In this document: positions 30,057-53,340 of the stretch, one piece after another
Layout: each line of letters starts with the position of its first letter
Position numbering within the stretch: position 1 is the first letter of the stretch
Translations under genes and position numbers: made by a program
The notes under the pieces: generated by a model
What the model was told of the DNA's origin: nothing
The model's input: only the letters and a program-made list of their open reading frames with translations
Databases searched by the model: none
Source of the DNA: Gemmatimonadaceae bacterium
GTDB taxonomy: Bacteria > Gemmatimonadota > Gemmatimonadetes > Gemmatimonadales > Gemmatimonadaceae
NCBI GenBank assembly: GCA_051859245.1
Contig: JBHYGA010000001.1
Location: 480,001 to 544,000 of the forward strand
DNA: 64,000 nucleotides
Direction: 5' to 3'

Positions 30057-30539
30057 TCAAGCGTCGCTCTGACGCGCCTGGCGGTTCAGGAGCTGGTCGA
30101 TGCGTCTCTTGTTCTCTTGCTGGAGCAGGGAGGGATAGACGTTGAGGATCACATTGGGGATCATCATGCTGAGTGCAAAAATGAGGCTGACATTGAAGCT
30201 CTGATACAACGCAGCGGCAGCCACAAATAGAAACCCGATCAAGTGGTTGAGCTCGGCAATGGTCATGTGATGGCGGATCGAAGCCAGATCCGTGTGCTTG
30301 CCCTCCACCTTGATGCTCTGATTCAAGAACCTGAAAAAGCTGTTCTTCACGACCCATTTGAACTGCGCAATTCCGAGCGCTCTGTTCAGGGCCTTGCTTG
30401 AGATGAAGTTCAGATGCGACAGCTTTTCGAAGTAACTGGTTTTGAGCAGGAGGGCGCCGCCCAGGATTCCGATCGTCCACGAGACGATGGACAGGGAGAG
30501 TCCAAAGGCGAAGCCGTTGAGGAGGTGATTCGCAACCAT
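30057..30539 (-). CDS. Membrane protein, CrtO (glycosyl-diaponeurosporenoate acyltransferase)-like
   Basis: AELNH and NVYPSLLQQENKRR motifs; lower GC than flanks. Confidence 0.6.
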   Translation of the reverse strand: MVANHLLNGFAFGLSLSIVSWTIGILGGALLLKTSYFEKLSHLNFISSKALNRALGIAQFKWVVKNSFFRFLNQSIKVEGKHTDLASIRHHMTIAELNHLIGFLFVAAAALYQSFNVSLIFALSMMIPNVILNVYPSLLQQENKRRIDQLLNRQARQSDA

Positions 30540-35819: not shown

Positions 35820-36605
35820 CTAGAGAGTTTGCTCGCGGATACGCTTGGAGTGGGAACGGCTCGCCAGCACGGTGCTACCATCTCGCAGTTGTACCTGAAA
35901 TCGACTTCCGTCGTACGGGATGAACTGTTGAATGTGGCGCTGGTTCACGACATGCGAGCGGTGCACTCGAAGAAACATCCCTTCCGGCAGTCGCCGCTCA
36001 ATCTCGAACAGCGGCATGTGCACGAGAAATCGGCGCCCCTGCGCGTGAATAGCCACATAGATGTCATCGGCCTCAAGACGTACAATGTCCTGAATGCGAA
36101 GCGCGACAATGCGCGCGCCGTCACGCACAAACACGGTGTGTAGTGGCTCCGCCTGCAACACGGCGCGCACTCTGTCACGCGTTGATTCGCCGTCATCATC
36201 ACCGCGTCGTCGGAGGAACACTTGCTCGCGGGCGCGCTCGACAGCTTGGTGTATCCGTGACGAATCAAATGGCTTCAGCACGTAGTCGATTGCAGCGAGC
36301 TCAAACGCATGCGTTGCATGCTCCCCATGCGCTGTAACGAAGACCACGGCCGGCGGATGCGCGCAACGCGTCAGTACCTCCATACCCGAGTAGCCTGGCA
36401 ACTGGATGTCCAGGAGGACCACATCGACATCATGGAACGCAAGCATTGCTGATGCCGACGGACCGTCCGCTGCCGAGCCGACGACCACGACGTTCGACAT
36501 GCGAGCGAGCTCGTCGAGCAACGCACGCCGCGCCAGTGGTTCGTCTTCGACCACGAGCACGCGAATTGGTGTCGTGTGTTGGTGATCGCGATCGGCCGCA
36601 GTCAC
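35820..36605 (-). CDS. LytTR-family response regulator
   Basis: VVEDE, LLDIQLP, FVTAH, DYVLKP, FLRVHRSHVVN. Confidence 0.93.
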   Translation of the reverse strand: MTAADRDHQHTTPIRVLVVEDEPLARRALLDELARMSNVVVVGSAADGPSASAMLAFHDVDVVLLDIQLPGYSGMEVLTRCAHPPAVVFVTAHGEHATHAFELAAIDYVLKPFDSSRIHQAVERAREQVFLRRRGDDDGESTRDRVRAVLQAEPLHTVFVRDGARIVALRIQDIVRLEADDIYVAIHAQGRRFLVHMPLFEIERRLPEGMFLRVHRSHVVNQRHIQQFIPYDGSRFQVQLRDGSTVLASRSHSKRIREQTL

Positions 36606-37726
36606 GATTCGCTCGAGTGCGCAGGCATTCGGAGCACGACGTGATACCCACCGTCGTTCCCGCTCGCAATCTGCATGCTTGCGTTCGTGCCGTACGCGCT
36701 TTGCAGGCGCTCCAACACGGCACGCTGACCAATGCCGATTCCGTTACCGAATCCGTTTGCTGAATGCGACGTCACGCCGATACCGTCATCGCGCACATCG
36801 ATGCGGAGCTGTCGATCGCGGACCACCGCCAGTATCTGCAGCGTGCTGGCGCCGAGTTTTGGAAAGATCCCATGGCGAACGGCGTTCTCCACCAGTGGTT
36901 GCAATGTGAGCGCGGGCAGCAGGCACTCACGCGCCTCCTCCGAGAGCGCAACGCGCACACTCAATCGATCCTGCATGCGCAGTTGCTCGATGTCGAGATA
37001 GTCGCGAACGAGTTGCCATTCTTCAGCGACCGTGACCAGATGATCGGCACGGCCGCCAAGCTCCAGCACGCGACGAAGCAATGTCCCGGTGCGAACCAGC
37101 ATCGCCCGCGCCGTGGCTGGATCGCGCTCCACCACCGCCGCAATGCTGTTGAGCGCATTGAACAGGAAGTGTGGATTCAAATGTGACCGAATCGTGCGCA
37201 ACTCCGCTTGTGCACGAAGCGCGTCTGCCCGGTGTGCTTCACCTACCGCCGTGCGCAGTGCCAAATCCTGTTCCCGTGCGCGACGCATGGACTGCACCAT
37301 GGTCATCGCGACCAGAGCGAGCGAAAAGAGCCAAAGTCCACCGAAGGCGTCCCATGCCACCGCGTCGACGACGGTATCGGTCTCGACCCCTGCGACCCGC
37401 AAGCCCAGTCCCCACACGGCCGCATGCGCGGTGGCGAGGAGCAGCACCGCGAGCGCGGCGCCCAGACGATGCCGCCAGCGTGCGAGGTGTTCCGACTGGA
37501 TACGTCTCGCCATCGGCCACAGCAACAGTGCCAGCGTTGCGGATAGCGCACAGTTTGCTGCGGCATACCATGCAGCCGCCGAGAGCGAACCTCCGGGGCC
37601 TGCGGCGAACCCGATGAAGTACATGGCGGTCACGGGAAGCCAAGCCGCCAGGTAGCTGAGCAGCCACAGTGTCCTCGTGACGCGTGAATGCGTGTCGATA
37701 GCCGAAGGCACCCCGGTCGTTTTCAT
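36602..37726 (-). CDS. LytS-type sensor histidine kinase
   Basis: LNPHFLFNALN, LQPLVENAVRHG, DDGIG. Confidence 0.93.
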   Translation of the reverse strand: MKTTGVPSAIDTHSRVTRTLWLLSYLAAWLPVTAMYFIGFAAGPGGSLSAAAWYAAANCALSATLALLLWPMARRIQSEHLARWRHRLGAALAVLLLATAHAAVWGLGLRVAGVETDTVVDAVAWDAFGGLWLFSLALVAMTMVQSMRRAREQDLALRTAVGEAHRADALRAQAELRTIRSHLNPHFLFNALNSIAAVVERDPATARAMLVRTGTLLRRVLELGGRADHLVTVAEEWQLVRDYLDIEQLRMQDRLSVRVALSEEARECLLPALTLQPLVENAVRHGIFPKLGASTLQILAVVRDRQLRIDVRDDGIGVTSHSANGFGNGIGIGQRAVLERLQSAYGTNASMQIASGNDGGYHVVLRMPAHSSES

Positions 37727-37859
37727 CGTGATCGAAGAGTAGCGTGGCGCTCACGTGCAGGCGCGCATCGCTGTGGCGAACGGGCATATGGATGAGGTGA
37801 GCCGTGAACCCATCGCGAACTCGAGACGGAGGATCAGCACTTCCGTACGTCCTCCCGGG

Positions 37860-38124
37860 ATTCCGCCCCGACTTGGGTCCAGTCTTCAGCTGACAATCGG
37901 GTGACTTCGACCGGAGCCGAAGAGGTGAGTCGAGCGGCGTACTCCGCCGACGTCAAGCCACCGAGGCTGCTGTGACTGTGTTCCGCGTGGTACTCGACGC
38001 GAAAGGCTTCGATCTTGACCTGCGCGTCCACCGGCGAGGTGAAGAAGTGCTCGTTCAGGCATTCGTCGCGCAGTCGACTGTTGAAGCTGTCGATGAACGC
38101 GTTGAAGTTGAGCTTGCCGGGCCG
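37860..38124 (-). mobile_element. IS3-family (IS407-like) transposase 3' remnant
   Basis: RPGK..NAFIDSFNSRLRDECLNEHFF..HSSLGGLT integrase-core C-terminus; 5' part absent. Confidence 0.8.
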
Positions 38125-38151
38125 ACTGGAGTCGAGTCATTGTGTAAGTCG

Positions 38152-38248
38152 ACCTAACGCCTACCGTTCAGCTGAAGCCGCATCAAATAGAAGCGCGCGA
38201 AGCGCGCCATCCATCGCGCGGCTGTCAGTCTGCAACGGCTTGTTAGGC
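38152..38248 (-). other. Integron attC site (97 bp)
   Basis: R'' GCCTAAC contains the stop codon of 38243-38812; R' GTTAGGT; paired arms. Confidence 0.88.
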
Positions 38249-38812
38249 CGATTTCGTAATTGGTATTTTGCCGACGAAGTAGAGACCTTCGCCGAGTGAG
38301 CCGAGGTCAGACAGCGACGCGGCCGAGGGTTGAAGGCATCCGACGTTGGCATCGAAATGGTAGAACGTGACATCTCGGATGATCGAGATTGAATGCATGC
38401 CCGACAGACCGCCAAAACGGCTTGAGTTAACAAATGCCATCAGCGCGGATTCCGAGTACCCGAGTAGGTCTTGCTCAATCTTCGCAGCATTGGTGGTGAC
38501 GTCGGCATAGGATGTATGGCTCACGGCTGCCCTCGCTCGCACAAAGATCGAGTGATTCGACGTTTCATGTAATGATTGAATGACTTTGTAGCCGCTCATG
38601 CCGGGCTGGCTATACCTCACGACGAAGTCGGCGAGATACGTAGCCTCGGCACATCGAGGATCAGGCGACAACCCGAAGTGCTCACAGTACGCGACAAAGT
38701 ACGAGAGGGGCGTCGCCCGCAGCCACGGCCATAGTGCCGAGGCGTAGCTCGCCAACACGCAGTAATTCCCCGATTGCACGTATGCCAAGCTTTCGAAATT
38801 TCGTCGGTCCAC
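38243..38812 (-). CDS. Cassette protein, putative papain-like (C39-like) Cys-His-Asp enzyme
   Basis: QSGNYC, HSISI, YHFDAN; AGGAGG RBS; bounded by attC boxes. Confidence 0.6.
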   Translation of the reverse strand: MDRRNFESLAYVQSGNYCVLASYASALWPWLRATPLSYFVAYCEHFGLSPDPRCAEATYLADFVVRYSQPGMSGYKVIQSLHETSNHSIFVRARAAVSHTSYADVTTNAAKIEQDLLGYSESALMAFVNSSRFGGLSGMHSISIIRDVTFYHFDANVGCLQPSAASLSDLGSLGEGLYFVGKIPITKSA

Positions 38813-38830
38813 ACTCCCTCCCTGTATTCG

Positions 38831-38922
38831 GCCTAACGCCAGCTGCTGCAGCGGGCGTTAAATGAAATGCGCGCGCAGCGCGCTACGGACAGTTCGCCCG
38901 ACTGCAGCAAGCATCGTTAGGT
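38831..38922 (-). other. Integron attC site (92 bp)
   Basis: R'' ACCTAAC contains the TIR stop codon; R' GTTAGGC; CTGCAG/CGGGCG arms pair. Confidence 0.9.
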
Positions 38923-39885
38923 GCCGTCTAGTGGAAATGCAGCTCTGACAAGTGCAGCGACCAGCTCGTCCGCCAACTCCGTCGAGCTGAATGGGCGCCC
39001 GCGTCCGTCCTCGTGCCAGACCCATCGATCACCCTTGGCAAGCCGAGAGCGGAAATCTCTATCTACAAGTCGAGTGACCTGATGGCTATCATAGCCACGC
39101 GCGCCAGGAAACCGCATGTATCCGCGGATGATTCGAGCATGAAGTCCAGACTTCTCGAGCGTGTTACTCCAGTTGAGCCGGAATCCAATTGAAAGAGCGT
39201 GATCGCGAATCTGCACGACGACGTGCTCACCGTCGGCGCCGGATACTACTCGCTCACCTGGAGCGTTCTGAGCAATCAGCGCGACTGACCGCTCAACGTG
39301 CTCGAACATGACGATTAGCTCGGACTTGAGCATTCGAACTCCGGCGTCGCTCGACTCAATGCTCGCCCGTCTCTCCTCATCCTGGTGTGTCCTCAACAAT
39401 CGCTCGGCGAGCTCCGCAGGCGTCTCTATGCGCTCCTGCACCCCAATCTCGCGCGTACGCGCAAGAACGACCGCCGCGAGGCCGTCGACACCGAAGTCAG
39501 CGACACTCGCGTAGATGCGGCTCTGTGGTAGCCATTTAGGCGGCTTCTCGCCGGCTACCAAAGAAGCGAGCAGAACCGTCTCCCACCCGCCCTCGAGCGC
39601 TCGGTCTTTAATCGCTGCTGCTTCAACTCTGGTCCAAGGAGTCTGCTCGTAGCCCTCGCGGAAGAGGATCACATTTAGAGCGGACTCACTTCTAAACGGA
39701 CTGCGAAAGGTTTCGAGGCCGTCCGTGCCGGCCACTTCTTCTTGACTACGCTCGTACATAAAGACCTTTAGACGTGGCGCCAGCGCTGCGTAGAGCGCAC
39801 GGGCTATATCAATGTCGCGAGCGAGAAATGAGATGGCTACGTGATACTTGAACTCTGGCATCTTTAGTTGGACGTCCGTGGACAC
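38917..39885 (-). CDS. Cassette TIR-domain protein
   Basis: YHVAISF..VFMYE..TPWTRVEAAAI (TIR with catalytic Glu); coiled region and unknown C-terminal domain. Confidence 0.8.
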   Translation of the reverse strand: MSTDVQLKMPEFKYHVAISFLARDIDIARALYAALAPRLKVFMYERSQEEVAGTDGLETFRSPFRSESALNVILFREGYEQTPWTRVEAAAIKDRALEGGWETVLLASLVAGEKPPKWLPQSRIYASVADFGVDGLAAVVLARTREIGVQERIETPAELAERLLRTHQDEERRASIESSDAGVRMLKSELIVMFEHVERSVALIAQNAPGERVVSGADGEHVVVQIRDHALSIGFRLNWSNTLEKSGLHARIIRGYMRFPGARGYDSHQVTRLVDRDFRSRLAKGDRWVWHEDGRGRPFSSTELADELVAALVRAAFPLDGT

Positions 39886-39976
39886 CTAACGCCCAGCTTC
39901 TGTTGCGAGCGGACGGCAAGAGGCTTCATGCGACGCAGATGGTCGGTCCGCTCGGCAACAGCAAGCACCGTTAGGC
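39884..39976 (-). other. Integron attC site (93 bp)
   Basis: R'' GCCTAAC, R' GTTAGGT; CTGTTGC/GAGCGGAC arms pair. Confidence 0.88.
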
Positions 39977-40082
39977 CGCGCCACGCAGATGTTGCGTCGA
40001 AACAGCCCGTCGCGCAACGAAACGGTGACGGTCACCGGCCGGGTCGGGCGTACGCTCGACGCTCCCCGGTCCCGAAGCGCGG

Positions 40083-40110
40083 TTGCCCCACGCGGCGCGC
40101 GCGCTAGAAT
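40083..40110 (+). promoter_or_regulatory. Putative sigma70 promoter (near-leaderless) of the Avs-like gene
   Basis: TTGCCC-N16-TAGAAT, 6 nt before ATG 40117. Confidence 0.5.
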
Positions 40111-40116
40111 TTCATC

Positions 40117-43100
40117 ATGCCAGCAAAGGGTGGAGCATCCGGGAAGTTTGGCGACCAGTACGAAGCGCTCTGGACAGTCGACGCATTGCTACGGGTCGTT
40201 GATGGCCAAGCAGATTCCGTCACGTATGAATCCCTCGACCCTGCGTTGTCCCGTGGTGTTGAGTTCAATCTACGGTCGTCAGCAGGGTACCTGGAGTTCT
40301 GGTCGATCAAGCGACAGACGGCCACGGCGGCCGGGTGGACTCTTGCAACGCTAGTGAAGCCGGACAATGCCGGTAGATCAATCCTTGGCGACCTTATTGC
40401 CCACGTAGAACGTAACGTCAGCAATATCGCCGTTTTTGCATCCACACTTGGAGCGGCAAAGCTTGAAGAACTTCGTTCCGCTTCAGCAACAGCTGATACC
40501 TTCAATGCACGCCTCGATCAATCCAAGGAACTCACCGCCGACTACAAAAGGTACCTCCTACCCCTCTTCGGTGGTGATCAAGAGCGTGCTCGCCAGTTCC
40601 TGACACGGGTCCAAATCCGAACATCGGATGAGACATCGCTCCGGACTAATATTGAATCGGCGATCTCTCGACTGTTCTATCGAGAGACGGGTGAAGCAAT
40701 CAATGCGTCCGGGATCCGCCGATTTCTGGCCGAATACCTGCTCAATCACATCCACGAGCAGATCGATCGGAGCATGCTATTTGACCACATCGCGGCGAAC
40801 GGCATCCGCCGAATGGATTGGAAGGTCGAGAAGACGATCCGCGAGAAAGTTTCGGCGCTCTGCGATGAGTATACCCAACCGCTACGTGAGCAGTTGATTC
40901 GCGGTGTGCTTCAGACATTGCCGGGGGCAGACAAGTTGCTCGGCCCTGACGGACTGCCGATTGCCCGACGGACGCTTCTTGCGGGTGGTGCTGGGGGAGG
41001 CAAGAGCACTGAACTTGCGCACATTGTGGAACGACTTCGCAAGGCGGAAATACCCACGCTTCCTATACGGCTGGACGTTGTCCCAGAGAGCATTCTCACG
41101 CCGACGAGATTGGGGAGCGATGTGCTGTCCCTTCACACATCCCCAGTGGCCTTACTTGCGGGTATCGCCGAAGGCGGGAACTGTGTTCTGGTCATCGATC
41201 AGCTCGACGCTGTAAGCCTTGCCTCTGGTCGCCGCACCGAGGTCTGGACGCTGTTCGAGCGGCTATTGGCCGAGGCGGACGGCTATCCGAACCTTAGGAT
41301 CGTAGTCGCCTGTCGAGCTTTCGACCTGGAGCACGATCATCGAATGCGGTCGCTGAAGGCAAAGTCGTCCGTATTCGAGGTCGTCGAGATCGGCTCATTC
41401 GACTCGAAAACGGTGAACGCCATTCTAGGGGATCGGAAGGTACATCCCAAGCTGAAGCCTCTACTAGTTGTTCCTCTCCATCTCGCCATGTTCCAATCGT
41501 TGGCGACAGGCGAGAGCGAACGCATCGAAACCCGTGATGAACTGTTTGCGGCCTTTTGGACCGACAAGCAGCGGAAGACGTCACATCGCCTTGGGAGAGA
41601 TTGCAACTTCGCCGGTGTGATCGATTGGCTGGCTACTTGGCTGAGTGATCATCAAGAGTTGTCGGCGCCTGCCAGCATGCTCCCGGACGAGAGGCGTGTG
41701 GATGCCGACGCCCTGACGTCAGAGCACGTGTTGGTGCTCGCGGACGGTCGATACCGATTCTTCCACGAGACGTTCTTCGACTATGCCTTCGCTCGCCGCT
41801 TCGTCCAGCGAGGCGAAACATTGATGGATCTGGTGCTACACGGAGAACAGCATCTGTTTCGTCGAGCACAGGTACGACAGATTCTCACGTTTCTGCGCGC
41901 GAATGATCGGGCGCGATACCTCGAAGAATTGCAGTCCATCCTCAGCGAGGATCGCGTCCGCTTTCACATAAAGCGAGTGTTGTTTCAATTCCTTTCAGCG
42001 CTCTCTGATCCGACGCACCCGGAGTGGGCCGTGCTGCACGAGCTTTCGTCTGTACAGCCGGATTTACTTGGCCAAGTAAATGGAGTTGTATCGAATCACG
42101 CCGGCTGGTTCGATGTGATGCGTGCGGACGGATTTTTCGACGCGGCGCTGTCGAGCAGGGAGGCGAAGCAAGAGGAACGCGCTATATGGCTCTGTGGAAT
42201 GCCAAGGGTAATGGAGCAGTGTTCCGCGCAAGTTGCCGGGCTATTGGTGAAGTACCGGCGCGATGATGAAGCGTGGCGAAAGTATCACCGACATATCTGT
42301 CGGACTGGAAATACATTCCACAGCCGCGAGATGTTCGACCTATTCCTCTACCTGATTCGGGATGGGACGCTTGATGGAGCACGGCCCGGTTTCGCAGTTA
42401 ATGACAACTGGTGGAGTATGCTTTACTCGGTAGCGGACAAGGCCCCTGCATTGGCTAGTGAGGCAATTGCGGCCTGGTTTGACCGAAAGCTAGAAATCTG
42501 GCGTGCGGAAACCTCGGAAAGAAACGCGCTCACGAATGGTGGAGACGACGCAGACGTAGGGGACGAAAACGCCCCTGTCACCGATGCTGTTGAGTCGTCG
42601 GCGCAGAACTTGCGACGACACGTTGAAGACGACGGAAATGACTGGGGCGTTATCCAAAAGGCCGCAGAAGCGTCGTTGGAATTCGCGCAGCATCTGTTAC
42701 CCCGAATCGCAGACGTCGCCGCTGAGCAAGCGAAGCCCTCCGGTGATGATTTGGCAATTGACCCGCTGTGGTCGTTTAGGATGTTCGGAGATAGCGGGCA
42801 TGGAGCGTCCGACTTAGTCCTCAGCAACGTCGCGCAAGCACTTGAGAGGCTCGCGCAGAAGTGCCCTGAAGAGCTGGACAAGATTCTCGCGCCATACACT
42901 GAACGCCCGCACGACGCCATTGCCTATCTTGTGCTCCGCTCATGGACAGCTGCTCCAACCACCTACGCAGAACGTTGTGCTCAATATCTGAGCGAAGACG
43001 CGCGGCGACTGAAGATCGGATACGCGTCGTGGGGCGGAGGTGCTGGGGCCGGAATGGCATCCGGATACCGATCGATTGAGGCAATACGCGCATCGTCGCC

Positions 43101-44769
43101 ACACTGCGCACCCGAGACGTTCGCCGCTCTGGAAACAGCAATCGTCAATCTAGCGGACAACTGGGAGACCAAGCATCCGAAGACGCGAGGATTGCGGCAA
43201 TTGCAGCTCCTCTCCGCCATGGATATGAGTCGGCTTGGAACTGCCGGTAGATCGAAGCTGGCTGAACTCAAGGCGAAATTCCCTGAAGTCACGCACGAGC
43301 CTCCCAAAGCGATGGAGGTCGTTTGGGTCGGATCACCGATCCCCGACGACGCTCAGGCGAAAATGACCGATGATCAATGGCTCTCGGCTCTGGCGAAGTA
43401 CGCTGGTGTTGAGCGCCGGCACGATAGAGACTTCGGAGCATCGGGTGGTGAATACCAACTCGCGCAATCGCTCGAAGCCAGAACAAAGGCTAATCCCAGT
43501 CGGTTTGCCGCGCTCAGCTCCAGAATGCCGACGACGTTTCCGTCTTCGTACTTCAACGCGGTACTCCGTGGCGTTGCCGGCTCATCGTCACTAGACGGTC
43601 CGGCCGCGCCTCCCGTGTCCGTGCCTGATGTAGTCGCACTAGTCGAGCAAGTTCACGCGCTGCCAGAACGTACTTGCGGACGATCGATCGCGCACCTTCT
43701 CGAAGGCTGGAGCAAGGTCGAGTGGCCGCCTTCGATCATTGAGGCGATTGCCTGGTATGCTATGGAGGATCCTGATCCCACGGAAGAAGTCTGGCGAACG
43801 CGTTCAGCCAGTGGCCAGTTCTACTACGGCGGCAAACCCGACTCGGCAGGGTTGAATTCGACCCGCGGAGCGGCCGCCAACGCAATTGCACGGTTGCTTC
43901 TCGAGAAGCGCGAACCGGGTGACGTGCTCAGAAAGGCAGTTGAACATCTCGCCCATGACACGTCGATCGCGGTGCGGTCTCAGGCGGTTTACCCCCTGCT
44001 TGCGTTGCTCGATACACATGCCGACCATGCCATCAGGTGGTTCGTTGAATGTGTCAGCCTTGACCCGATTCTGCTCAAGGCGCACTTCGTTGAGCAATTC
44101 CTTTATCATGCGGCGTTTCGTGACTATGCTGCCATTCGACCTGTACTCGAACGAATGACCGCAAGTGACGATGAGGAAGTAGTTGAGGCTGCCGCTCGAT
44201 TGTGCTGTGTGCTCGCATTTGGCTTTGAACCAGCCGACAAAGACGCCAAGAAGATTCGCGAGGGAGGTCCAGCAATGCGCAAGAGCGCTGCCAACGTCTA
44301 CGCTACCAACGTCGCGAACGAAGAAGTCGGGGCGAGTTCACGCGAACTGCTGCTGCCTTTTTTCTCAGACACTGAAGATGCGGTGAGGACACAAGCGGCA
44401 AGTGCATTCCACGAACTTGAAAAGCTTGATGCCGCCGAGCAGGCCAAGTTGCTCGGAGCATTCTTGGATGGCAAACCTACAGCCGAAGCGTTGGAACGCG
44501 TCATCCGCGCGATCGAAGACTCGCCGGTTCAATTGCCCGACCTCGTCATCCGCGTGGTCGAAGAGGGTATTGCGGCATTCAAGGCAGATGCGGGCGACAT
44601 ATCCAAAGCGGGAGCCATGGTCGCTGGCGACCTTTCGAAAATTGTCATTAGACTGTACTCGCAGTCGGATGGTGAGCAGATCAAGAAGCGGGCTCTTGAC
44701 GCGATTGATGACATGGAGCGGGCCGGATTCTTCGGATTGGCGGACGAATTAGGGAAGCTCGAACGCTGA
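40117..44769 (+). CDS. Nuclease-STAND NTPase, Avs/AVAST-like anti-phage protein
   Basis: N-terminal GDQYE..GVEF..SIKR (Cap4/PD-(D/E)xK-like); Walker A GGAGGGKST; Walker B VLVIDQLD; VACR; FFHETFFDY winged helix; long helical-repeat C-terminus. Confidence 0.82.
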   Translation: MPAKGGASGKFGDQYEALWTVDALLRVVDGQADSVTYESLDPALSRGVEFNLRSSAGYLEFWSIKRQTATAAGWTLATLVKPDNAGRSILGDLIAHVERNVSNIAVFASTLGAAKLEELRSASATADTFNARLDQSKELTADYKRYLLPLFGGDQERARQFLTRVQIRTSDETSLRTNIESAISRLFYRETGEAINASGIRRFLAEYLLNHIHEQIDRSMLFDHIAANGIRRMDWKVEKTIREKVSALCDEYTQPLREQLIRGVLQTLPGADKLLGPDGLPIARRTLLAGGAGGGKSTELAHIVERLRKAEIPTLPIRLDVVPESILTPTRLGSDVLSLHTSPVALLAGIAEGGNCVLVIDQLDAVSLASGRRTEVWTLFERLLAEADGYPNLRIVVACRAFDLEHDHRMRSLKAKSSVFEVVEIGSFDSKTVNAILGDRKVHPKLKPLLVVPLHLAMFQSLATGESERIETRDELFAAFWTDKQRKTSHRLGRDCNFAGVIDWLATWLSDHQELSAPASMLPDERRVDADALTSEHVLVLADGRYRFFHETFFDYAFARRFVQRGETLMDLVLHGEQHLFRRAQVRQILTFLRANDRARYLEELQSILSEDRVRFHIKRVLFQFLSALSDPTHPEWAVLHELSSVQPDLLGQVNGVVSNHAGWFDVMRADGFFDAALSSREAKQEERAIWLCGMPRVMEQCSAQVAGLLVKYRRDDEAWRKYHRHICRTGNTFHSREMFDLFLYLIRDGTLDGARPGFAVNDNWWSMLYSVADKAPALASEAIAAWFDRKLEIWRAETSERNALTNGGDDADVGDENAPVTDAVESSAQNLRRHVEDDGNDWGVIQKAAEASLEFAQHLLPRIADVAAEQAKPSGDDLAIDPLWSFRMFGDSGHGASDLVLSNVAQALERLAQKCPEELDKILAPYTERPHDAIAYLVLRSWTAAPTTYAERCAQYLSEDARRLKIGYASWGGGAGAGMASGYRSIEAIRASSPHCAPETFAALETAIVNLADNWETKHPKTRGLRQLQLLSAMDMSRLGTAGRSKLAELKAKFPEVTHEPPKAMEVVWVGSPIPDDAQAKMTDDQWLSALAKYAGVERRHDRDFGASGGEYQLAQSLEARTKANPSRFAALSSRMPTTFPSSYFNAVLRGVAGSSSLDGPAAPPVSVPDVVALVEQVHALPERTCGRSIAHLLEGWSKVEWPPSIIEAIAWYAMEDPDPTEEVWRTRSASGQFYYGGKPDSAGLNSTRGAAANAIARLLLEKREPGDVLRKAVEHLAHDTSIAVRSQAVYPLLALLDTHADHAIRWFVECVSLDPILLKAHFVEQFLYHAAFRDYAAIRPVLERMTASDDEEVVEAAARLCCVLAFGFEPADKDAKKIREGGPAMRKSAANVYATNVANEEVGASSRELLLPFFSDTEDAVRTQAASAFHELEKLDAAEQAKLLGAFLDGKPTAEALERVIRAIEDSPVQLPDLVIRVVEEGIAAFKADAGDISKAGAMVAGDLSKIVIRLYSQSDGEQIKKRALDAIDDMERAGFFGLADELGKLER

Positions 44770-44778
44770 ATATCGGAA

Positions 44779-45110
44779 TCAGGCAAGGTCGACTTGCTCC
44801 ATCGCACAGTTGAGCAATTTTTCGGGGTTGATGTCGAGCACGCACTGCACGCCGTTGATGAACAGAATGACGTCGTAGGGTGTGATCCAAATGGTCGGCG
44901 TTGATGCGCACTTGGAGGACGACCTCGTAAGGTGTTCTTGCACCAGTCCTTGATGATCACCAGCGTGAAGTTCAGCGGCGTGTCGTCGTCGCGGGTGAAG
45001 CTGTTGGTTGTGCAGCGGGTCTGGCTGGACGTTGTAGACGTCGGGGGTGGTAGTCTCGTCCAGCAGGCGGACGAACCCGTGTAGTAGCATCAGCGAACGG
45101 TGAGCTGCGC
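44779..45110 (-). pseudogene. hsdR: Type I restriction endonuclease subunit R N-terminal relic
   Basis: FVRLLDE..TPDV, TRDDDTPLNFTLVIIKDWCKNT, RINAD and YDVILFINGV spread over several frames. Confidence 0.7.
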
Positions 45111-45177
45111 TGAGTTTCTCCCATCAGTGGGAATGCTTCGGATTGAACTTCGAAGGCCGTCTAGGTCTTTGGGGTTT

Positions 45178-45268
45178 GCCTTACGCTAGCGTTGTCCTGT
45201 GGCGGCCGAGCGCAGCGAGGAATAGCCACCCCTTTGTGGCGGCCGTCAGGACAAACGCGAGGTTAGGC
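45178..45268 (-). other. Integron attC site (91 bp) with mutated R' (GTAAGGC)
   Basis: R'' GCCTAAC contains the stop of 45263-46177; TTGTCCTG/CAGGACAA arms. Confidence 0.85.
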
Positions 45269-46177
45269 CGGAGCGCCGAAGCCTGTTGGCAGGACGGTCG
45301 CGCGAATACGTCTGTCGAGCGCCTCAACGAGATCCTCCGGCGCCTTCCACAGGATGTGACTGTACTGCCTCGTGTCAAAGTGGGCGTCCTTGATAGCGTC
45401 CTCACGGCAGGTCCAAATCACCGGAATCCCGTGCCCCTGGGCGAGACCGGCTTCGAAGTAGACTCCGCCTCGATGACCCGTGAAATCCGCGACCAGCAGT
45501 CCGCTTCGCTTGACTTCGGCGACGATCTCGTCATCAATCTTGTTGTTGTGTTCCTTGCGGTCGATGCGGAGCGCGGAGAAGTACTTCGAGCGCTCGATAC
45601 CGGGCTTGAATCCGTGAGTCCACGCGTCATCGAGCGAAGAATCGAACCACATCGCGACGAACGCCTGCCGACTGTCACGGTTCACAGCTCGAAGTGCTTC
45701 AATGCGCTGCCAGCCGGCGGCAGTGATTCGCTTCGTCGTCTGGTCGAAGAAGCCCATCTCCGCAGCCATGAACACCAAGTCGCCATACTGCGACTCGTCA
45801 CGAACCGGTACGCGGACATAGTCGTATTCCGGCTGCAGATTGATTTGCTCGCTGTATCGACGTGCCTTGGTGGCAAGATGGAGCAGAATTAGATCGACAC
45901 CAGAAGCCAACGTGCTGGTAGATGGCGCTGTGGCCGCAAGCTGCGGAGTGTTCTCGACGGTCACGAACAGATGCTCACGTCGATCTGTGGCAGCGCGGAT
46001 CGCGAATGCAAGGCGAAAGCGATCTCGTCCGAGTATGCGTTCGATTGTGGATCCAGTTGCTAGACGATCAATGGAATAGCTTCCGCATCGAGGGCATGAG
46101 AGCGTGACGGCATCGCGTTCCGGGAACCGCACCTTTTCGGTCTGAGCACCGTCACGACCACAAATCGAGCATTGCAT
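45263..46177 (-). CDS. Cassette protein: Zn-ribbon + nucleoside 2-deoxyribosyltransferase/TIR-like domain
   Basis: CSIC..CPRC; AFVAMWF, RID..HNNKIDDEI, VADFT..GVYFEAGLA, HFDTRQY. Confidence 0.8.
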   Translation of the reverse strand: MQCSICGRDGAQTEKVRFPERDAVTLSCPRCGSYSIDRLATGSTIERILGRDRFRLAFAIRAATDRREHLFVTVENTPQLAATAPSTSTLASGVDLILLHLATKARRYSEQINLQPEYDYVRVPVRDESQYGDLVFMAAEMGFFDQTTKRITAAGWQRIEALRAVNRDSRQAFVAMWFDSSLDDAWTHGFKPGIERSKYFSALRIDRKEHNNKIDDEIVAEVKRSGLLVADFTGHRGGVYFEAGLAQGHGIPVIWTCREDAIKDAHFDTRQYSHILWKAPEDLVEALDRRIRATVLPTGFGAPA

Positions 46178-46216
46178 GCGGAAAGTGCCCTCGAACAGGC
46201 AGGTGCTTGGTTGCTT

Positions 46217-46245
46217 GCCTAACGCGTATTGGACTGCAGGCGATC
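46217..46245 (-). other. attC right arm / cassette 5' boundary
   Basis: Minus strand GATCGCCTGCAGTCCAATACGC-GTTAGGC; complementary to R'' at 45262-45268. Confidence 0.65.
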
Positions 46246-46445
46246 ATTGCACAGTGAGATTTATGTCGCGGGTCAGCGCAGCATAATCGGCGGCGACAGT
46301 GAAGCCGTTGAACAGCTTAAACACATTCGCTCCAATAGTTTATTTGGTCAAGAGTACGCCGTGTGCGAAGCGGTTATGCTGCAGATATCGCAGCCTAACG
46401 CGAGCCTCCGCCGAGCTGCGACCAAACGAACTCTGTCATGATCCG

Positions 46446-46760
46446 CTATGTCGGATCCATGTCGAGCGGGCTACGGACGCCAGGGCCACCGCGATTGAGG
46501 ACGTGCGTAAAGATCATCGTGGTCGACAAGTAGCGATGGCCGAGCAACTCTTGCACGGTGCGAATGTCATAACCGGCCTCAAGCAAGTGCGTCGCGAACG
46601 AGTGACGGAAAGTATGGCAACCCACACGCTGGTCTAGGCCGATACGTCGTCCTGCTTCACACACCGCACGCTGAAGCACGCTGGGGTGGATGTGATGCGT
46701 CAATCGTACCCGGTAGTCAGGTGATTCGAACTCGCGACTCGCAGGGAACAGCAAATTGTC
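46446..46760 (-). pseudogene. intI: Integron integrase C-terminal fragment, catalytic Tyr->Phe
   Basis: [12 protein letters not shown] (IntI-specific region), [45 protein letters not shown]. Confidence 0.9.
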
Positions 46761-46776
46761 CACGCTGATACGCCGT

Positions 46777-47067
46777 CTACTCACGAACAACGGGCATCAG
46801 ATGCATCTCCACTCCCAGCGCGCGAAGAAGCTTTAGCACCGTGTCATATCTTGGTTTGGCTCCAGGAGCCAACGCCTTGTAGAGGCTCTCTCGGCCGAGT
46901 CCCGTATCCTTGGCCACCTGCGCCATGCCACGAGCCTTCGCTACATCGGCAATCGCCTGCAAAAAGAGTTCCGGATGCTCGCTCGCAAGTGCGACGTTGA
47001 GATATTCGGCGATGACTTCTTCGCTATCGAGATAGTCAGCGGCATCGAATGCAACAGGCTTTTTCAC
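46777..47067 (-). CDS. Addiction-module antidote (HigA-like HTH antitoxin)
   Basis: [33 protein letters not shown] start overlaps the toxin stop. Confidence 0.9.
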
Positions 47068-47369
47068 AGGTCTTTCTCCAAGCGGGTGCGCAAGGCTTTC
47101 GCTTTGCCGATGTCTCGGCGCTGTGTCGATTTGTCGCCGCCACACAGCAGCCAATGGGTGTCGGTTCCGTGGCGCCAGTAATACACGCGATAGCCCGGCC
47201 CCACGTGAATACGGAGTTCAAAGACGCCGTCACCTACTGCCGTACTGTCAGCAAAGTGCCCCAGTTCCGCGGCGCGGATTCGAGCAAGAATGCGCGCTTT
47301 CCCAATTGGGTCTTTGAGTGCCTTTAGCCACTCGTCGAACTCGGGAGTGCGGAAGAAACCGGATGTCAT
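47064..47369 (-). CDS. Addiction-module killer (RelE/HigB-like toxin)
   Basis: FDEWL..GDGVFELRIHVGPGYRVY..LLCGGDKSTQRRDI. Confidence 0.9.
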   Translation of the reverse strand: MTSGFFRTPEFDEWLKALKDPIGKARILARIRAAELGHFADSTAVGDGVFELRIHVGPGYRVYYWRHGTDTHWLLCGGDKSTQRRDIGKAKALRTRLEKDL

Positions 47370-47375
47370 TTTGAA

Positions 47376-47393
47376 TGTATCCATTCGGATACA
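47376..47393. promoter_or_regulatory. TA operator palindrome
   Basis: TGTATCC-attc-GGATACA immediately upstream of the toxin ATG. Confidence 0.65.
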
Positions 47394-47535
47394 GCTCGTC
47401 AAGCGCGGAAAACGCGTCTGCAAGCTGGCGTGAACTGCGTGGCTCGACACCCGTGCGTCTGCACGCTACTGGCGCCGCTACTAACCAGAGTACGCACCGG
47501 GCGAAACGCACGCGTCATCACAACACCGCCGCTCG

Positions 47536-48330
47536 CATCAATCAAACCACCCATGCACAAACCACCGTCCCATTTCCTGATACAACAACAAATCTCCCTC
47601 GCCATCGGCCACACACCGCCAGTAATCGCGCGCGAACGCATCCGCACGCCACCAGTCGCCGGTGAGTCGCTCGGGACCACTCGCGTGTGACACCACCACG
47701 CGGCGCTGCTGCCACGCCACCGCACTCGGCGCACCATGCACGCCACATTCCACCGTGACGGGATCCGGCGTCTCCAGTAAACGCAACGCGGCGTGATCGA
47801 GTGGCGACGCTGCACGCGGTGTTTCATCATCACGCGATGTCACATCAGCGCGCGCACGAACATCACGCGCTGTCGCACCACCCGACGTCACATCCTCACG
47901 CGTCGCACGCTCCGCTAACGTCCACGCATCCGCACGCACCCACACACCGGCGCGATCATACCGATGTGCATCTTGGCTTTCCGGATGCACCACCACATCA
48001 CCGCGTCCGTCCGGATCAAGCGCCGCCGCCAATCGCGCAATCGCCGCTTCAACACTCGCCGCGGCATCACGCCACGACGGTTCAAGCAAATCCCCTTGAT
48101 CTGCAGCAAGTGGTGCAGTGGCGGGAATGTGCACGGTCACACCAGTCACAGCCGCCGACCGTATCCATCGCTCAAGCAACGAGCGACACTGTTCAACAAG
48201 AGGTTCAACACGCGCAAGCGGACGAGCAGGACGCACTTCGCGCGTAATGCTGCGCGTCGCACGATCCCATCCGTCGAGACGCTGCGCATCGACGCCCACA
48301 ATCGCTTCGAGATGCGCGTCGCTACTCTGA
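47536..48330 (-). repeat. Duplicated 3' half of imuB (copy 1, lacks 5' end; 48-bp in-frame insertion)
   Basis: Near-identical to 51240-51986; differences mostly synonymous. Confidence 0.92.
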
Positions 48331-50072: not shown

Positions 50073-51284
50073 GTGCGATGGTGTTCTATCACGCGTGGAT
50101 CTCGTGTTGTGCTGCTTGGTTCGCTGTTCTGGGGAGGCTGTGACGGGGCGTCTAGTGAATCGGGGTCTCTCCCGCTACTTCAGCTCGCGCCCGTTTCCGC
50201 AGAAAGTGTGGTCGGTTACACATCCATCACCAGCGTTCGAGAACTCGGTGACGGACGTGTTCTGGTGACTGACCCGCGCGAAGGACGCGTTGAAGTGCTG
50301 GACTTTTTTACTGGCACTGCCACTCCAGTCGGGCGGCGCGGCGCCGGTCCCGAAGAATGGTCGTCGGCAGTGGCGGTGTGGCCCTTGGGAACCGATTCGA
50401 GTCTACAGTCGGATCCGCTGGCTCGTCGCTGGGTGTTTTTTTCGGGAGACCGGGTAGCAGCAGTTCAAACTGGTGAGTCTCTGCCGAATGAGCTCGGGCG
50501 GATGCTGATATACGGCGCAGACTCGCTTGGGAATGTGCTGAGTTTTCATCAACCCGAGATTCGGGAGCTCGGTGCTTCTGCGGACTCAGCGTCAATCCTC
50601 ATCGTTCGTCGTGCTTCCGGTCGTGTCGATACCGTCGGTCGGCTTCTCAGCGCACCCGGCGTATTGGTCGGATCAAACGTTAGAGCTGTGAGTCGACCCG
50701 CGCTCGCGGTCGGTGAGCAAGCTGCAATGTTCGTCGACGGCTGGATCGCTATTCTGCGATTACGCCCGTATCGCGTTGATTGGAGATCTCCGGACGGCAG
50801 CGAGTTGCGTGGTGCCCCGGTTGAAGTCACCGATCCCCCACTCACAGAGTCCGATCGCAGTCTCTACATTCGCGACCATCAGACGTTTATTGCGTCAGTC
50901 GACAAGATGCCGCCCGGAATGCGTGACCTCGCGCGTCGGGCGGTCTCTGATTTCCCTTCGACGCTGCCTCCTGTGCAACCTTTCGCTTTGGTCGCCGGCG
51001 GAGACGGGCTGTTGTATGTTCGTCGGACTAAGTCCGCTGACCTGCCGATGCCGATTCTCGACGTCGTAGACCGATCAGGCGTTCGTTGTGCACGCATTCA
51101 GCTTGCTGTGGGGGAGCGGCTGCAGAGCGTGACCCAGCGTTGGATGTATGTAGTGGTTATTGATGAAGACAACGTCGAGCGTGTTCGTCGCTACGAAAAT
51201 GTTGCCTCGGCCGCCGCGAATAGTTCGCCGCTCACGAGTCATCAATCAAACCACCCATGCACAAACCACCGTCCCATCTCCTGA
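50073..51284 (+). CDS. 6-bladed beta-propeller lipoprotein
   Basis: WGGC lipobox; VRELGDGRVLVTD, VGRRGAGPEEW, DGLLYV, DEDNVERVRRY; start uncertain. Confidence 0.75.
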   Translation: MRWCSITRGSRVVLLGSLFWGGCDGASSESGSLPLLQLAPVSAESVVGYTSITSVRELGDGRVLVTDPREGRVEVLDFFTGTATPVGRRGAGPEEWSSAVAVWPLGTDSSLQSDPLARRWVFFSGDRVAAVQTGESLPNELGRMLIYGADSLGNVLSFHQPEIRELGASADSASILIVRRASGRVDTVGRLLSAPGVLVGSNVRAVSRPALAVGEQAAMFVDGWIAILRLRPYRVDWRSPDGSELRGAPVEVTDPPLTESDRSLYIRDHQTFIASVDKMPPGMRDLARRAVSDFPSTLPPVQPFALVAGGDGLLYVRRTKSADLPMPILDVVDRSGVRCARIQLAVGERLQSVTQRWMYVVVIDEDNVERVRRYENVASAAANSSPLTSHQSNHPCTNHRPIS

Positions 51285-52963
51285 TACAACAACAAGTCGC
51301 CTTCACCATCGGCCACACACCGCCAGTAATCGCGCGCGAACGCATCCGCACGCCACCAGTCGCCGGTGAGTCGCTCGGGACCACTCGCGTGTGACACCAC
51401 CACGCGGCGCTGCTGCCACGCCACCGCACTCGGCGCACCATGCACGCCACATTCTACCGTGACGGGATCCGGCGTCTCAAGTAAACGCAACGCGGCGTGA
51501 TCGAGTGACGATGCTGCACGCGGTGTCTCATCATCACGCGACGTCACATCCTCACGCGTCGCACGCTCGGCTAACGTCCACGCATCTGCGCGCGTCCACA
51601 CACCGGCGCGATCATACCGGTGCGCATCTTGGCTTTCCGGATGCACCACCACATCACCGCGTCCGTCCGGATCAAGCGCCGCCGCCAATCGCGCAATCGC
51701 CGCTTCAACACTCGCCGCGGCATCACGCCACGACGGTTCAAGCAAATCCCCTTGATCTGCAGCAAGTGGTGCAGTGGCGGGAATGTGCACGGTCACACCA
51801 GTCACAGCCGCCGACCGTATCCATCGCTCAAGCAACGAGCGACACTGTTCAACAAGAGGTTCAACACGCGCAAGCGGACGAGCAGGACGCACTTCGCGCG
51901 TAATGCTGCGCGTCGCACGATCCCATCCGTCGAGACGCTGCGCATCGGCGCCGACAATCGCTTCGAGATGCGCGTCCGTATTCTGACGCGCCACATCAAG
52001 CTCCAGCGTAATCGCCACCGACGCCGCTGATCGTCCGTCACGCACGAGATCGTGCACCAGACGTTCAAGCGCCGCGCGCACAAGAAATCCAACTGGCGTC
52101 ACAGTCTGCGCCGGTGTCGCCAACTCGGCGTGCACCGCGCGTGGTGCATCAACACGCACAAGTCCCGGACGACGCGGATCAATACCGCGCGCGAGTTTCC
52201 AACTGGCTAGACCGGTGGCACCCCAACGCGCTTCTACATCACCAGACGCCAGCGCCGCAAACGCACCGAGTGTGCGAATGCCGAGTGCGCTCAGTGCAGT
52301 GCGCACATCCGCGTCCATGGGAATCAAACCCAGCGGAGCGGGAGCCAGATACGCCGCACACCCACCACTCGGCACAATCGTACTGGCACTGCCACGCGGA
52401 GGATTCCACGTCGCCGCGCGCGCTGACACACACGAATCCGCAATCGCCACACGCGCATCTGGATGCCAGCGGCGCGCAATTGTGAGCAACAACTCGAGCA
52501 ACGCGTCTTCACCACCGGGTCGATTGGCAAAACCATTCGCACCAATCCACCACGTGCCTGCGGCACCCGCGGCCGGCGTGACCTGCGGACTGGCCGCCAG
52601 AAATGACGCCGTGGTTTCGGTAATCGCACGCGTGATCGTGTCATGATCCCACTCGCGCACATCAAGCGTCGCACACCGCGCCCGCGCTTCGGTCACGCGC
52701 ATTCCCGCCGTGACGCCAGCCCGCGCCGCCGCCACCGACACGGCCTTGAGCCGCTGTCCCTCCATGAGCGCCCGCGGAGCCGTATCCCAATGGGCAGCCG
52801 GCGCCGCCAGCACCGTTTCCGCCGGCCCCATCGCCAGCGCCAACGTGAGCTGCACCGGCGCCGCACCCACCGGTACCGGCGCATTCCGCCACACCGCCCC
52901 AAGAGGGAAGCGCGGAATGCGAACACAGGCAATTCGCCAGGGGGAAGGGGCAGGGGAAGTCAT
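51242..52963 (-). CDS. imuB: ImuB-like inactive Y-family polymerase
   Basis: IACVRIPRFPL, AARAGVTAGM..ARA, LGIRTLG, GPERLTGDWW..RDYW..W..HGWFD; lacks catalytic DxD. Confidence 0.85.
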   Translation of the reverse strand: MTSPAPSPWRIACVRIPRFPLGAVWRNAPVPVGAAPVQLTLALAMGPAETVLAAPAAHWDTAPRALMEGQRLKAVSVAAARAGVTAGMRVTEARARCATLDVREWDHDTITRAITETTASFLAASPQVTPAAGAAGTWWIGANGFANRPGGEDALLELLLTIARRWHPDARVAIADSCVSARAATWNPPRGSASTIVPSGGCAAYLAPAPLGLIPMDADVRTALSALGIRTLGAFAALASGDVEARWGATGLASWKLARGIDPRRPGLVRVDAPRAVHAELATPAQTVTPVGFLVRAALERLVHDLVRDGRSAASVAITLELDVARQNTDAHLEAIVGADAQRLDGWDRATRSITREVRPARPLARVEPLVEQCRSLLERWIRSAAVTGVTVHIPATAPLAADQGDLLEPSWRDAAASVEAAIARLAAALDPDGRGDVVVHPESQDAHRYDRAGVWTRADAWTLAERATREDVTSRDDETPRAASSLDHAALRLLETPDPVTVECGVHGAPSAVAWQQRRVVVSHASGPERLTGDWWRADAFARDYWRCVADGEGDLLLYQEMGRWFVHGWFD

Positions 52964-52976
52964 TATCAGGTTCGTT

Positions 52977-52995
52977 ATACCGAATAAATACCGAA
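52977..52995 (-). promoter_or_regulatory. Direct-repeat operator ATACCGAA-N3-ATACCGAA over the imuB promoter
   Basis: 11-bp period; overlaps a TATAAC -10-like hexamer upstream of ATG 52963. Confidence 0.55.
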
Positions 52996-53021
52996 AACAA
53001 ACCCCGCCGTCCAGCACGCAG

Positions 53022-53053
53022 TTCCTCCGTGCCTCCGTGTCCCCGTGGTAAAA
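53022..53053 (-). repeat. REP-like CACGGAG/CACGGGG heptad-type element
   Basis: TTTTACCACGGGGACACGGAGGCACGGAGG, intergenic. Confidence 0.45.
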
Positions 53054-53112
53054 GCAGTTGCCGTTCGGATCTCTGTCTTGACATCTGATGCGTGATGCGT
53101 GATGTTTCCACC

Positions 53113-53340
53113 GTGCGCACCACGCTAACTCTGGACGACGACATTCTCGACGCGGCCAAAGCAATCGCCGCCGCCCGAGGCGTCTCCATTGGCGAGGTGA
53201 TCTCTGAACTGGTCCGTACGGCGCTGTCGACTCCCACCCAGCGGAGCACGCGCAACGGTATCACGCTTTTCCCGGCGCGAGCGGGCGCCGGACGCGTGAC
53301 GCCCGACATCGTACGCACCTTGCTCGATGAGTCCGCGTAA
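53113..53340 (+). CDS. VapB-like RHH antitoxin
   Basis: MRTTLTLDDDIL..SIGEVISELVR; TTGACA and TGATGCG repeats upstream. Confidence 0.85.
   Translation: MRTTLTLDDDILDAAKAIAAARGVSIGEVISELVRTALSTPTQRSTRNGITLFPARAGAGRVTPDIVRTLLDESA

Follow-up and report, generated by a model that had tools for sequence, protein, structure and literature searches.

A chromosomal reverse integron, with its integrase gene (intI), attI site, and cassettes on one strand, appears to have lost two thirds of intI while four cassettes stayed behind, likely frozen because of this loss and likely serving in part in phage defence; we put the probability of this overall reading at about 0.7. The locus lies in the window, the 64,000-nt stretch of DNA analyzed here. 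Both reverse integrons and defence carried by integrons have been published before. The following minus-strand features define the integron:

46446..46754, minus strand: intI stub, the 3′ third of an integron integrase gene (TIGR02249 positions 216–313 of 315)
46373..46399, minus strand: GTTA-type boxes arranged as an inverted repeat, between the intI stop codon and attI
46217..46234, minus strand: attI simple site (GTCCAAT, 4-bp spacer, G|TTAGGC), assigned by comparison with relatives
45178..45268, minus strand: attC-A, 91 nt, 31 bits with model R1, R′ box GTAAGGC rather than GTTAGGC
39884..39976, minus strand: attC-B, 93 nt, 61 bits with R1
38831..38922, minus strand: attC-C, 92 nt, 44 bits with R1
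38152..38248, minus strand: attC-D, the final site of the array, 97 nt, 52 bits with R1

The sequence-only reading had described four full minus-strand attC sites of 91–97 bp, and all four were recovered, at the scores listed, with the covariance model R1, which was trained on 24 attC sites from related genomes and none from the window. Aligning the window's own four sites with MAFFT gave nothing usable, which is why R1 draws on relatives; an initial strict heuristic for attC had been dropped after recovering one of the four together with many false sites. E-values ranged from 2.5e-5 to 1.4e-12, and the minus-strand score exceeded the plus-strand score at every site. No other R1 match below E 0.4 was found in the 64 kb, and an Rfam search of the window returned no family. 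The training set shows covariation, and the window sites carry R′′, L′′, L′, and R′ boxes with strand polarity and are each predicted to fold into a long hairpin. As had been noted for three cassettes, in cassettes 1, 3, and 4 the first bases exactly complement the cassette's own R′′ box, inside which lies the stop codon. The start of cassette 2 (GTAAGGC) matches its own R′′ (GCCTAAC) at 6 of 7 positions, the single mismatch falling in the GTT triplet.

The best profile for the intI stub was TIGR02249 (133.6 bits versus 80 for XerC); the stub scores below the TIGR02249 cut-off because it is truncated, and its orthologue in G002, a genome of the same genus, passes. The stub is oriented into the array. 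Its amino acid sequence is 92% identical to that of the intact G002 IntI, and homology in the DNA begins at 46752. No other IntI was found in the host genome (rated 99.9% complete), leaving the stub as its only integron-integrase piece. The GTTA-type inverted repeat, shared with the C6 platform, G002, G005, and G004, likely represents accessory integrase-binding sites. At the adjacent simple site, relatives were conserved up to the GTT and diverged beyond it, and in 11 of 14 platforms the R box and the R′′ of the first cassette were complementary, versus 2.6 expected by permutation. These comparisons identify 46234–46217 as the attI at the array head; its earlier description as one extra attC right arm, that is, as an attC remnant, was rejected on the same two grounds.

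Among 21 related loci, 101 attC sites were located 3′ of intI (166 kb), all on the intI strand, versus 0 in 134 kb 5′ of intI. An orientation-blind hairpin scan likewise found no attC 5′ of intI in these loci, and R1 does detect 5′ attC sites in canonical integrons of other phyla. The layout inferred from the window, a co-directional intI with the array after its 3′ end, was thus seen in 20/20 related loci having attC calls (the remaining locus had none) and a divergent intI in none, a stronger case for a reverse integron than had been claimed. In G002, the orthologous locus, syntenic at 89–95% nucleotide identity on both flanks, has an intact co-directional intI and other cassettes. The reverse layout is therefore inherited and not a local rearrangement. 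That the co-directional intI reflects a local inversion or assembly artefact of a canonical integron is extremely improbable: a duplicated imuB end just upstream and the single class 1 integron for which the available text of PMC4889954 records an inverted integrase would fit such an event, but the 20 related loci and the G002 orthologue refute it, and one contig from the probable source run, not independent evidence, covers 36500–47565 without differences. In an IntI tree without a fixed root, a single branch of support 67 separated 31 reverse from 10 canonical sequences, and a larger tree placed Treponema-like rows beside the window's group (support 84). Our literature search found no published report of an order-wide reverse layout in Gemmatimonadales.

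The array is flanked on its two sides by the following elements:

46777..47375, minus strand: RelE/HTH toxin–antitoxin pair (TIGR02683 and TIGR02684, above cut-off) in place of the 5′ two thirds of intI
37930..38121, minus strand: 3′ relic of an IS3-like transposase at the array end (Pfam rve_3, 6.6e-17)

The toxin–antitoxin pair is 79% identical in nucleotides to attC-flanked cassettes of G005 and G008, a likeness that marks it as a former cassette minus its attC. The host genome has two further intI-less attI platforms, three in total, across which the intI stubs shorten from about 100 codons to only a few C-terminal codons. The description of the integron as decaying thus holds, intI being truncated here while the G002 locus keeps an intact gene. 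While still intact, IntI would have placed new cassettes at G|TTAGGC, on the 3′ side of the gene encoding it; the toxin–antitoxin ex-cassette would then have arrived in a replacement event that deleted the 5′ portion of intI but spared attI and the array. Release of cassette 2 may be hindered further by the GTT-to-GTA change in attC-A. The different cassettes of G002 at the same locus are an indirect sign of IntI-catalyzed exchange. No excision joints were found in two contig sets, although contigs cannot reveal rare excision.

Three of the four cassettes carry a single gene in the array direction:

45263..46177, minus strand: cassette 1 gene, 304 aa; Zn-ribbon, helical middle, C-terminal TIR/NDT-fold domain
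38917..39861, minus strand: cassette 3 gene, 314 aa; predicted N-terminal TIR with a WTxxE motif, helical linker, C-terminal domain of unknown type
38243..38812, minus strand: cassette 4 gene, 189 aa; predicted papain-like (C39-type) peptidase

The cassette 1 protein matched a PADLOC TIR effector model (5e-11) and, below the curated cut-off, Pfam NDT (0.003). Its predicted structure (pLDDT 93) matched TIR-APAZ and DNPH1/MilB about equally, and D231 and E242, an acidic catalytic pair in a flavodoxin-like fold, were invariant in the alignment. A 68% homologue in G432 has an attC after it; two homologues had no PADLOC match. No sequence relationship was detectable between the cassette 1 and cassette 3 proteins. 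The latter matched Pfam TIR_2 at 0.013, below the curated cut-off (homologues, 1.8e-4 and 4.9e-5), with W76, T77, and E80 invariant in 4/4 sequences; no attC was found within 1.5 kb of its homologues in three genomes. The TIR and TIR/NDT proteins may cleave NAD+ or nucleotides. For the cassette 4 protein, no meaningful match was found in Pfam or PDB and no relative among 250 genomes of the order; its ESM Atlas neighbors (0.93–0.94) include clusters with Peptidase_C39 on 25–29% of members, and C18 and H140 were invariant in 45/45 sequences. PADLOC matched neither cassette 3, nor three of its homologues, nor cassette 4.

Cassette 2, a 5,293-bp unit, contains the following features:

40117..44769, plus strand: gene for a 1,550-aa Avs7-like protein, opposite to the array
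40083..40110, plus strand: weak promoter-like site, 7 bases before the Avs7-like start (9/12 consensus matches)
44849..45069, minus strand: internal, frameshifted hsdR fragment, split over two frames

The Avs7-like protein comprises a putative Cap4-type nuclease, a STAND NTPase, and a putative helical-repeat sensor modeled as all-helical (pLDDT 90.5). Its only significant PDB match was SeAvs7 (PDB 9N00), found with phmmer in the NTPase region (8e-15) and weakly in the sensor region (5.5e-4); a family profile matched SeAvs7 at 2e-51, and its sensor region at 2.7e-17. Residues of the nuclease, Walker A, and Walker B were invariant in 39–40 of 40 homologues (E38, E49, S63, and K65 in 40/40). Its own N-terminal 200 aa had no Pfam match; two homologues, P0103 and P0119, score above the Pfam cut-off for Cap4. 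Judged from sequence, the protein is homologous over its full length to SeAvs7, a receptor that has been tested. By analogy with SeAvs7, it would be expressed from its own promoter, bind the phage major capsid protein, oligomerize, and cut DNA, resulting in abortive infection; promoter-like sites in the region numbered 4 versus 3.7 by chance. The hsdR relic reported earlier was borne out by blastn, with 75% nucleotide identity over 221 bases to an annotated type I restriction hsdR (E 5e-30); blastn alone identified it, Pfam and a pairwise test giving no match. The same arrangement of hsdR beside a STAND gene occurred in 0 of 159 loci elsewhere. Nearest neighbors of the STAND family matched PADLOC in 12 of 47 loci, a count without a random-gene control, or in 10 of 47 after removal of two generic methyltransferase matches. 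No published Avs protein inside an integron cassette was found in our literature search.

Cassette 2 may well never have been mobile as one unit; part of a defence island, comprising the hsdR fragment and the Avs7-like gene, would then have entered a small cassette already in place, at a later time and through ordinary or illegitimate recombination. Consistent with such insertion, the receptor gene is reversed and adjoins a gene scar, no attC at E<0.05 was found near STAND homologues (best 0.073 in 75 loci and 0.096 in 88), attC sites in the relatives' arrays lie a median of 692 bp and at most 3,655 bp apart (101 sites), compared with 5.3 kb for this unit, and integron defence genes are described as shorter than average in the available part of 10.1101/2024.07.02.601686. 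On the other hand, the cassette 2 borders lack long terminal or target repeats, its short head and tail matched no cassette in the fetched related loci, its start still fits its own R′′ at 6/7, another genome of the same genus (G012) has a first cassette of 3.3 kb that carries Hachiman HamB, and the closest STAND homologues (70–90% identical) fall outside the examined loci, of which the best is 66% identical. It seems rather doubtful, if conceivable, that cassette 2 is instead a genuinely mobile 5.3-kb cassette, excised as DNA from a defence island; such an origin is suggested because a reversed, self-promoted receptor and a mid-gene hsdR scar would be absent from a transcript-derived cassette. 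If so, reverse integrons of the multi-phylum group (Gemmatimonadales, Planctomycetota, and others) could capture whole immune receptors and then fix them via intI loss, without array damage because attI sits 3′ of intI.

The sequence-only reading had seen an anti-phage arsenal in which every recognizable cargo fits immunity. This stood for the Avs7-like gene, a SeAvs7 homologue; the two cargoes assigned to TIR/NDT folds matched no tested system, and the papain-like cargo showed no defence link. A tested defence relative exists for the Avs7-like gene alone; a defence role for the other cargo is what we infer. PADLOC matched two of the four window cargoes at about 1e-10 or better, but 9 of 100 cassettes of relatives at 1e-5 and 0 of 7 ORFs in the genome's other two attI arrays; arrays elsewhere in the genome and order hold mostly unknown, membrane, or toxin–antitoxin genes. 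Because of the low counts elsewhere (0/7 and 9/100), the platform is, by this measure, general-purpose and the window copy defence-rich. The array could alternatively be a neutral relic of mixed, mostly non-defence cassettes stranded after intI loss, decaying and poorly expressed or silent. The truncated intI, the mutated attC-A, the hsdR and transposase scars, the two further intI-less platforms, the lack of a defence link for cassette 4, and the Pc search, in which the lone candidate (a 9/12 site at 46465–46438) was at chance level and no Pc was found, are all consistent with this. We nevertheless regard it as improbable: none of the four cargo genes is shortened, one of them being an open frame of 4.65 kb, their catalytic residues are conserved, and PADLOC matches are more frequent than among the relatives' cassettes.

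Together, these results show reverse integrons to be more than a Treponema curiosity, the layout being the apparent default in an entire bacterial order, and define an attI consensus usable by tools. The window locus and G002 form a natural pair for studying reverse-integron recombination. Since the origin of new cassettes is stated as unknown in the available text of PMC4889954, the 5.3-kb unit with its reversed receptor gene and gene scar offers a direct test case for DNA-level capture. The locus also adds a distant Avs7 relative and three uncharacterized candidate defence genes.

The integron resembles the Treponema denticola-type reverse integrons, as described in the available portions of PMC7691350, PMC4889954, and PMC3575428, in its IntI family, in having attI and cassettes on one strand, and in the position of attI 3′ of intI; Treponema-like IntIs also adjoin the window's group in the tree, and the available text of PMC4889954 calls the reverse-integrase group paraphyletic. 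It differs in its host group, placed in Gemmatimonadales by the best named match and the tree, in its apparently order-wide layout, in its attI sequence, and in its truncated integrase. The 1,550-aa protein shares with SeAvs7 (1,523 aa; PDB 9N00/9N01/9YIX; PMC12803255, available part) a predicted nuclease–STAND–helical sensor order, with homology in the NTPase and sensor, and its Avs7 membership is a sequence-based assignment. It is distant from SeAvs7, has an S-x-K nuclease motif where SeAvs7 has Q-x-K, keeps D1059 but not K1044 or H1048 of the three placeable EF-Tu contact residues, and is encoded between attC sites. Defence-type and toxin–antitoxin cassettes likewise occur in the sedentary and mobile integrons covered by the available parts of 10.1101/2024.07.02.601686 and 10.1101/2024.07.02.601719; the former describes integron-borne defence systems as small and streamlined, with 73% in Vibrio, whereas the window has a 4.65-kb reversed gene and a gene scar within cassette 2. 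Finally, as in Xanthomonas integrons with inactivated intI and in CALIN arrays (10.1101/2025.06.18.660453 and PMC4889954, available parts), the array stays stable, at a fixed place in the chromosome, once intI is lost, but the window genome has three separate attI platforms, each with a shorter intI stub.

The locus in the window is a real but dead reverse integron carrying one notable passenger. The sequence-only reading had described four attC sites, three cassettes whose starts exactly complement their own R'' boxes, and a co-directional intI stub, all of which were confirmed in the window sequence. The stub aligns to positions 216-313 of the integron-integrase model, which has 315 positions in all. 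Elsewhere in this genome, which comprises 11 contigs and is rated 99.9% complete, that model matches two XerC/D-like genes, ~30% identical to a full IntI. The attC sites were scored using a covariance model built from 24 aligned attC from ten loci of related genomes, with zero window sequences in training; in this alignment, pairing was found in 91.7% of cells and both-sided change in 15 of 26 pairs. The window sites scored 61, 52, 44, and 31 bits, and the only other hits in the window with E under 0.4 were two of these same sites read on the opposite strand.

45178..45268, minus strand, attC-A (31 bits, the lowest score)
39884..39976, minus strand, attC-B
38831..38922, minus strand, attC-C
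38152..38248, minus strand, attC-D

The R' box of attC-A reads GTA where GTT is expected; a GTA triplet in attC impairs recombination.

An IntI match was found in 44 of 61 genomes searched, 37 of them above the cut-off (a tally including G021, whose sequence was unused), and the best named match was Gemmatirosa (64%), which makes the host a probable member of the Gemmatimonadales. We examined the long flanks of 20 integrases from 19 IntI-bearing genomes, picked for contig room, together with the Gemmatirosa record. The covariance model detected 101 attC on the 3' side of intI (166 kb), 24 of them being its training sites, versus none on the 5' side (134 kb). An orientation-blind hairpin scan likewise found none 5' of intI, and the model is capable of seeing such sites, since it detects those of canonical integrons elsewhere. 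A divergent intI in relatives, which would have pointed to local rearrangement in the window, was not seen: attC were present in 20 of the 21 loci, every one on the intI strand.

The element previously described as an extra right arm is real; it is, rather, the attI, as it is conserved to GTT among relatives and then diverges. It is built like a simple site: an inverted box is separated by 4-5 bp from GTTRRRY, a spacing consistent with PMC12614218. A pattern-located attI and a first attC were both available in 14 platforms, 12 of them in related loci and the other two being the window and contig C6 of the same genome. In 11 of the 14, the attI R box complemented the R'' of the first cassette exactly, where permutation gives 2.6. 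The pattern was unmatched in eight other attC-bearing loci, though similar motifs were visible in several.

The same-genus genome G002 shares both flanks with the window at 89-95% identity and retains an intact, co-directional intI (322 aa). Its array differs from that of the window: one unknown gene and a PDC-M30-like pair are accompanied by genes that probably do not serve defence. Where the 5' two thirds of intI once were, the window has a RelE/HTH toxin-antitoxin pair; G005 and G008 carry this pair as a cassette flanked by attC, and the window copy lacks its attC. Two additional attI platforms were found in the window's own genome.

G000:C6:208123-210761, second attI platform (L286): a few intI codons left, three attC; membrane-type protein, unknown protein, HigB/HTH pair
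G000:C4:523495-523756, third, more decayed attI platform (L287): a few intI codons left; restriction-type ATPase and methyltransferase genes upstream, PDC-S05 gene downstream

Such repeated intI loss with survival of attI and array would fit the placement of attI past the 3' end of intI. Loss of intI freezes arrays, according to 10.1101/2025.06.18.660453.

Several further features were observed nearby. The imuB 3' end is duplicated (97%) at window 47536-48299 and 51240-53164, enclosing a 3-kb block absent from G002 (a DsbA-like gene, two small secreted-type ORFs, and a 491-aa unknown). G002 instead has a different small two-gene pair between imuB and intI (L036:14050-14570), presumably a toxin-antitoxin judging by resemblance, and diverges from the window immediately after GTTT. 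Possible attC right-arm remnants, below model detection, lie at window 28274, 30014, and 30611 (minus strand), and at 30057-30539 lies a gene of the CrtO family, another member of which forms a cassette in G024; this stretch may therefore be an older, decayed array.

Counted from attI, cassette 1 encodes a Zn-ribbon, a helical part, and a flavodoxin-like domain in the predicted structure; this domain matches TIR-APAZ (3.5e-4) and DNPH1/MilB (1-3e-3) about equally, and D231 and E242 are invariant in the alignment. Cassette 3 has a putative TIR domain scoring under the Pfam cut-off, with WTxxE conserved. The cassette 4 protein is likely papain-like, with C18 and H140 invariant, and no tie to defence was found for it. 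Two of the four window cassettes matched PADLOC at ~1e-10 or better, versus 9 of 100 relatives' cassettes at 1e-5 (two of the nine generic; the 100 being longest-ORF picks, some of them probably not the true gene of the cassette) and 0 of 7 ORFs in the C6 and C4 arrays. By kinship, the relatives' matches comprised 6/20 in the same genus, the first-position Hachiman HamB gene listed below among them, versus 3/80 in other genera. The platform is thus general-purpose, and the proposed anti-phage arsenal is supported in part, this copy being defence-leaning.

L039:9627-12970, first cassette of G012: 3.3 kb, Hachiman HamB helicase gene

Later G012 cassettes include Mrr_N-NOV_C and NYN genes. Another related locus (L048:7360-8557) has a tandem run of four near-identical ~295-bp cassettes with no clear gene. 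On contig C5, a lone attC (30.5 bits; L288, G000:C5:520763-529988) closes a cluster of DNA methyltransferase, metallophosphoesterase, ORC-CDC6-like ATPase, and CARF-like genes and is followed by a WYL gene; the adjoining genes we take, by resemblance, to be for bacteriochlorophyll synthesis.

The notable passenger lies in cassette 2 (5,293 bp), where the suspected hsdR relic proved to be an internal, frameshifted hsdR fragment. A 1,550-aa gene on the strand opposite to the array encodes a STAND protein with intact conserved motifs, whose sole significant PDB match, over NTPase and sensor parts alike, is 9N00. PMC12803255 describes 9N00 as SeAvs7 in the apo state, a receptor of Cap4 nuclease-STAND-TPR architecture that recognises phage major capsid protein. 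The sensor of the window protein is predicted with confidence as an all-helical solenoid; its likeness to Avs7 is one of sequence. It is possible, if rather doubtful, that a whole immune receptor was captured at the DNA level as one 5.3-kb cassette: the unit's boundaries agree at 6 of 7 positions, no terminal repeats were found at it, and its head and tail are unlike every other cassette fetched. Against this, attC spacing in relatives has a median of 692 bp and a maximum of 3,655, and two sets of sources carrying STAND homologues (75 and 88) yielded no attC at E<0.05. These homologue loci reach no more than 66% identity, and many belong to other phyla, in which the model may fail to see sites. 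Published integron defences are also streamlined (10.1101/2024.07.02.601686). The STAND family has restriction and other defence genes as neighbours in 10-12 of 47 loci, so the hsdR scar is accounted for whether or not the 5.3-kb unit is one cassette.

Literature searches, with most subscription journals outside coverage, found no link of Avs7 or AVAST with integron cassettes and nothing on the layout of this order among reports of reverse or inverted integrons; PMC8618304 lists integrons in Gemmatimonadota, orientation not given. In a quick IntI tree (84 rows, one short row omitted, phylum labels as on seed records), 28 of 29 IntIs of this order clustered with twelve others, six from the Planctomycetota phylum and six from the G490 phylum (support 96). 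The sole integrase of the order outside the main branch (L006) has a second intI copy directly after it. Four IntIs that we read as Treponema-like lay near that cluster (support 84). Among orientation-called rows only, 31 reverse and 10 canonical IntIs fell on opposite sides of one branch (support 67, unrooted). Reverse integrons as such are already documented in PMC7691350, PMC4889954, and PMC3575428.
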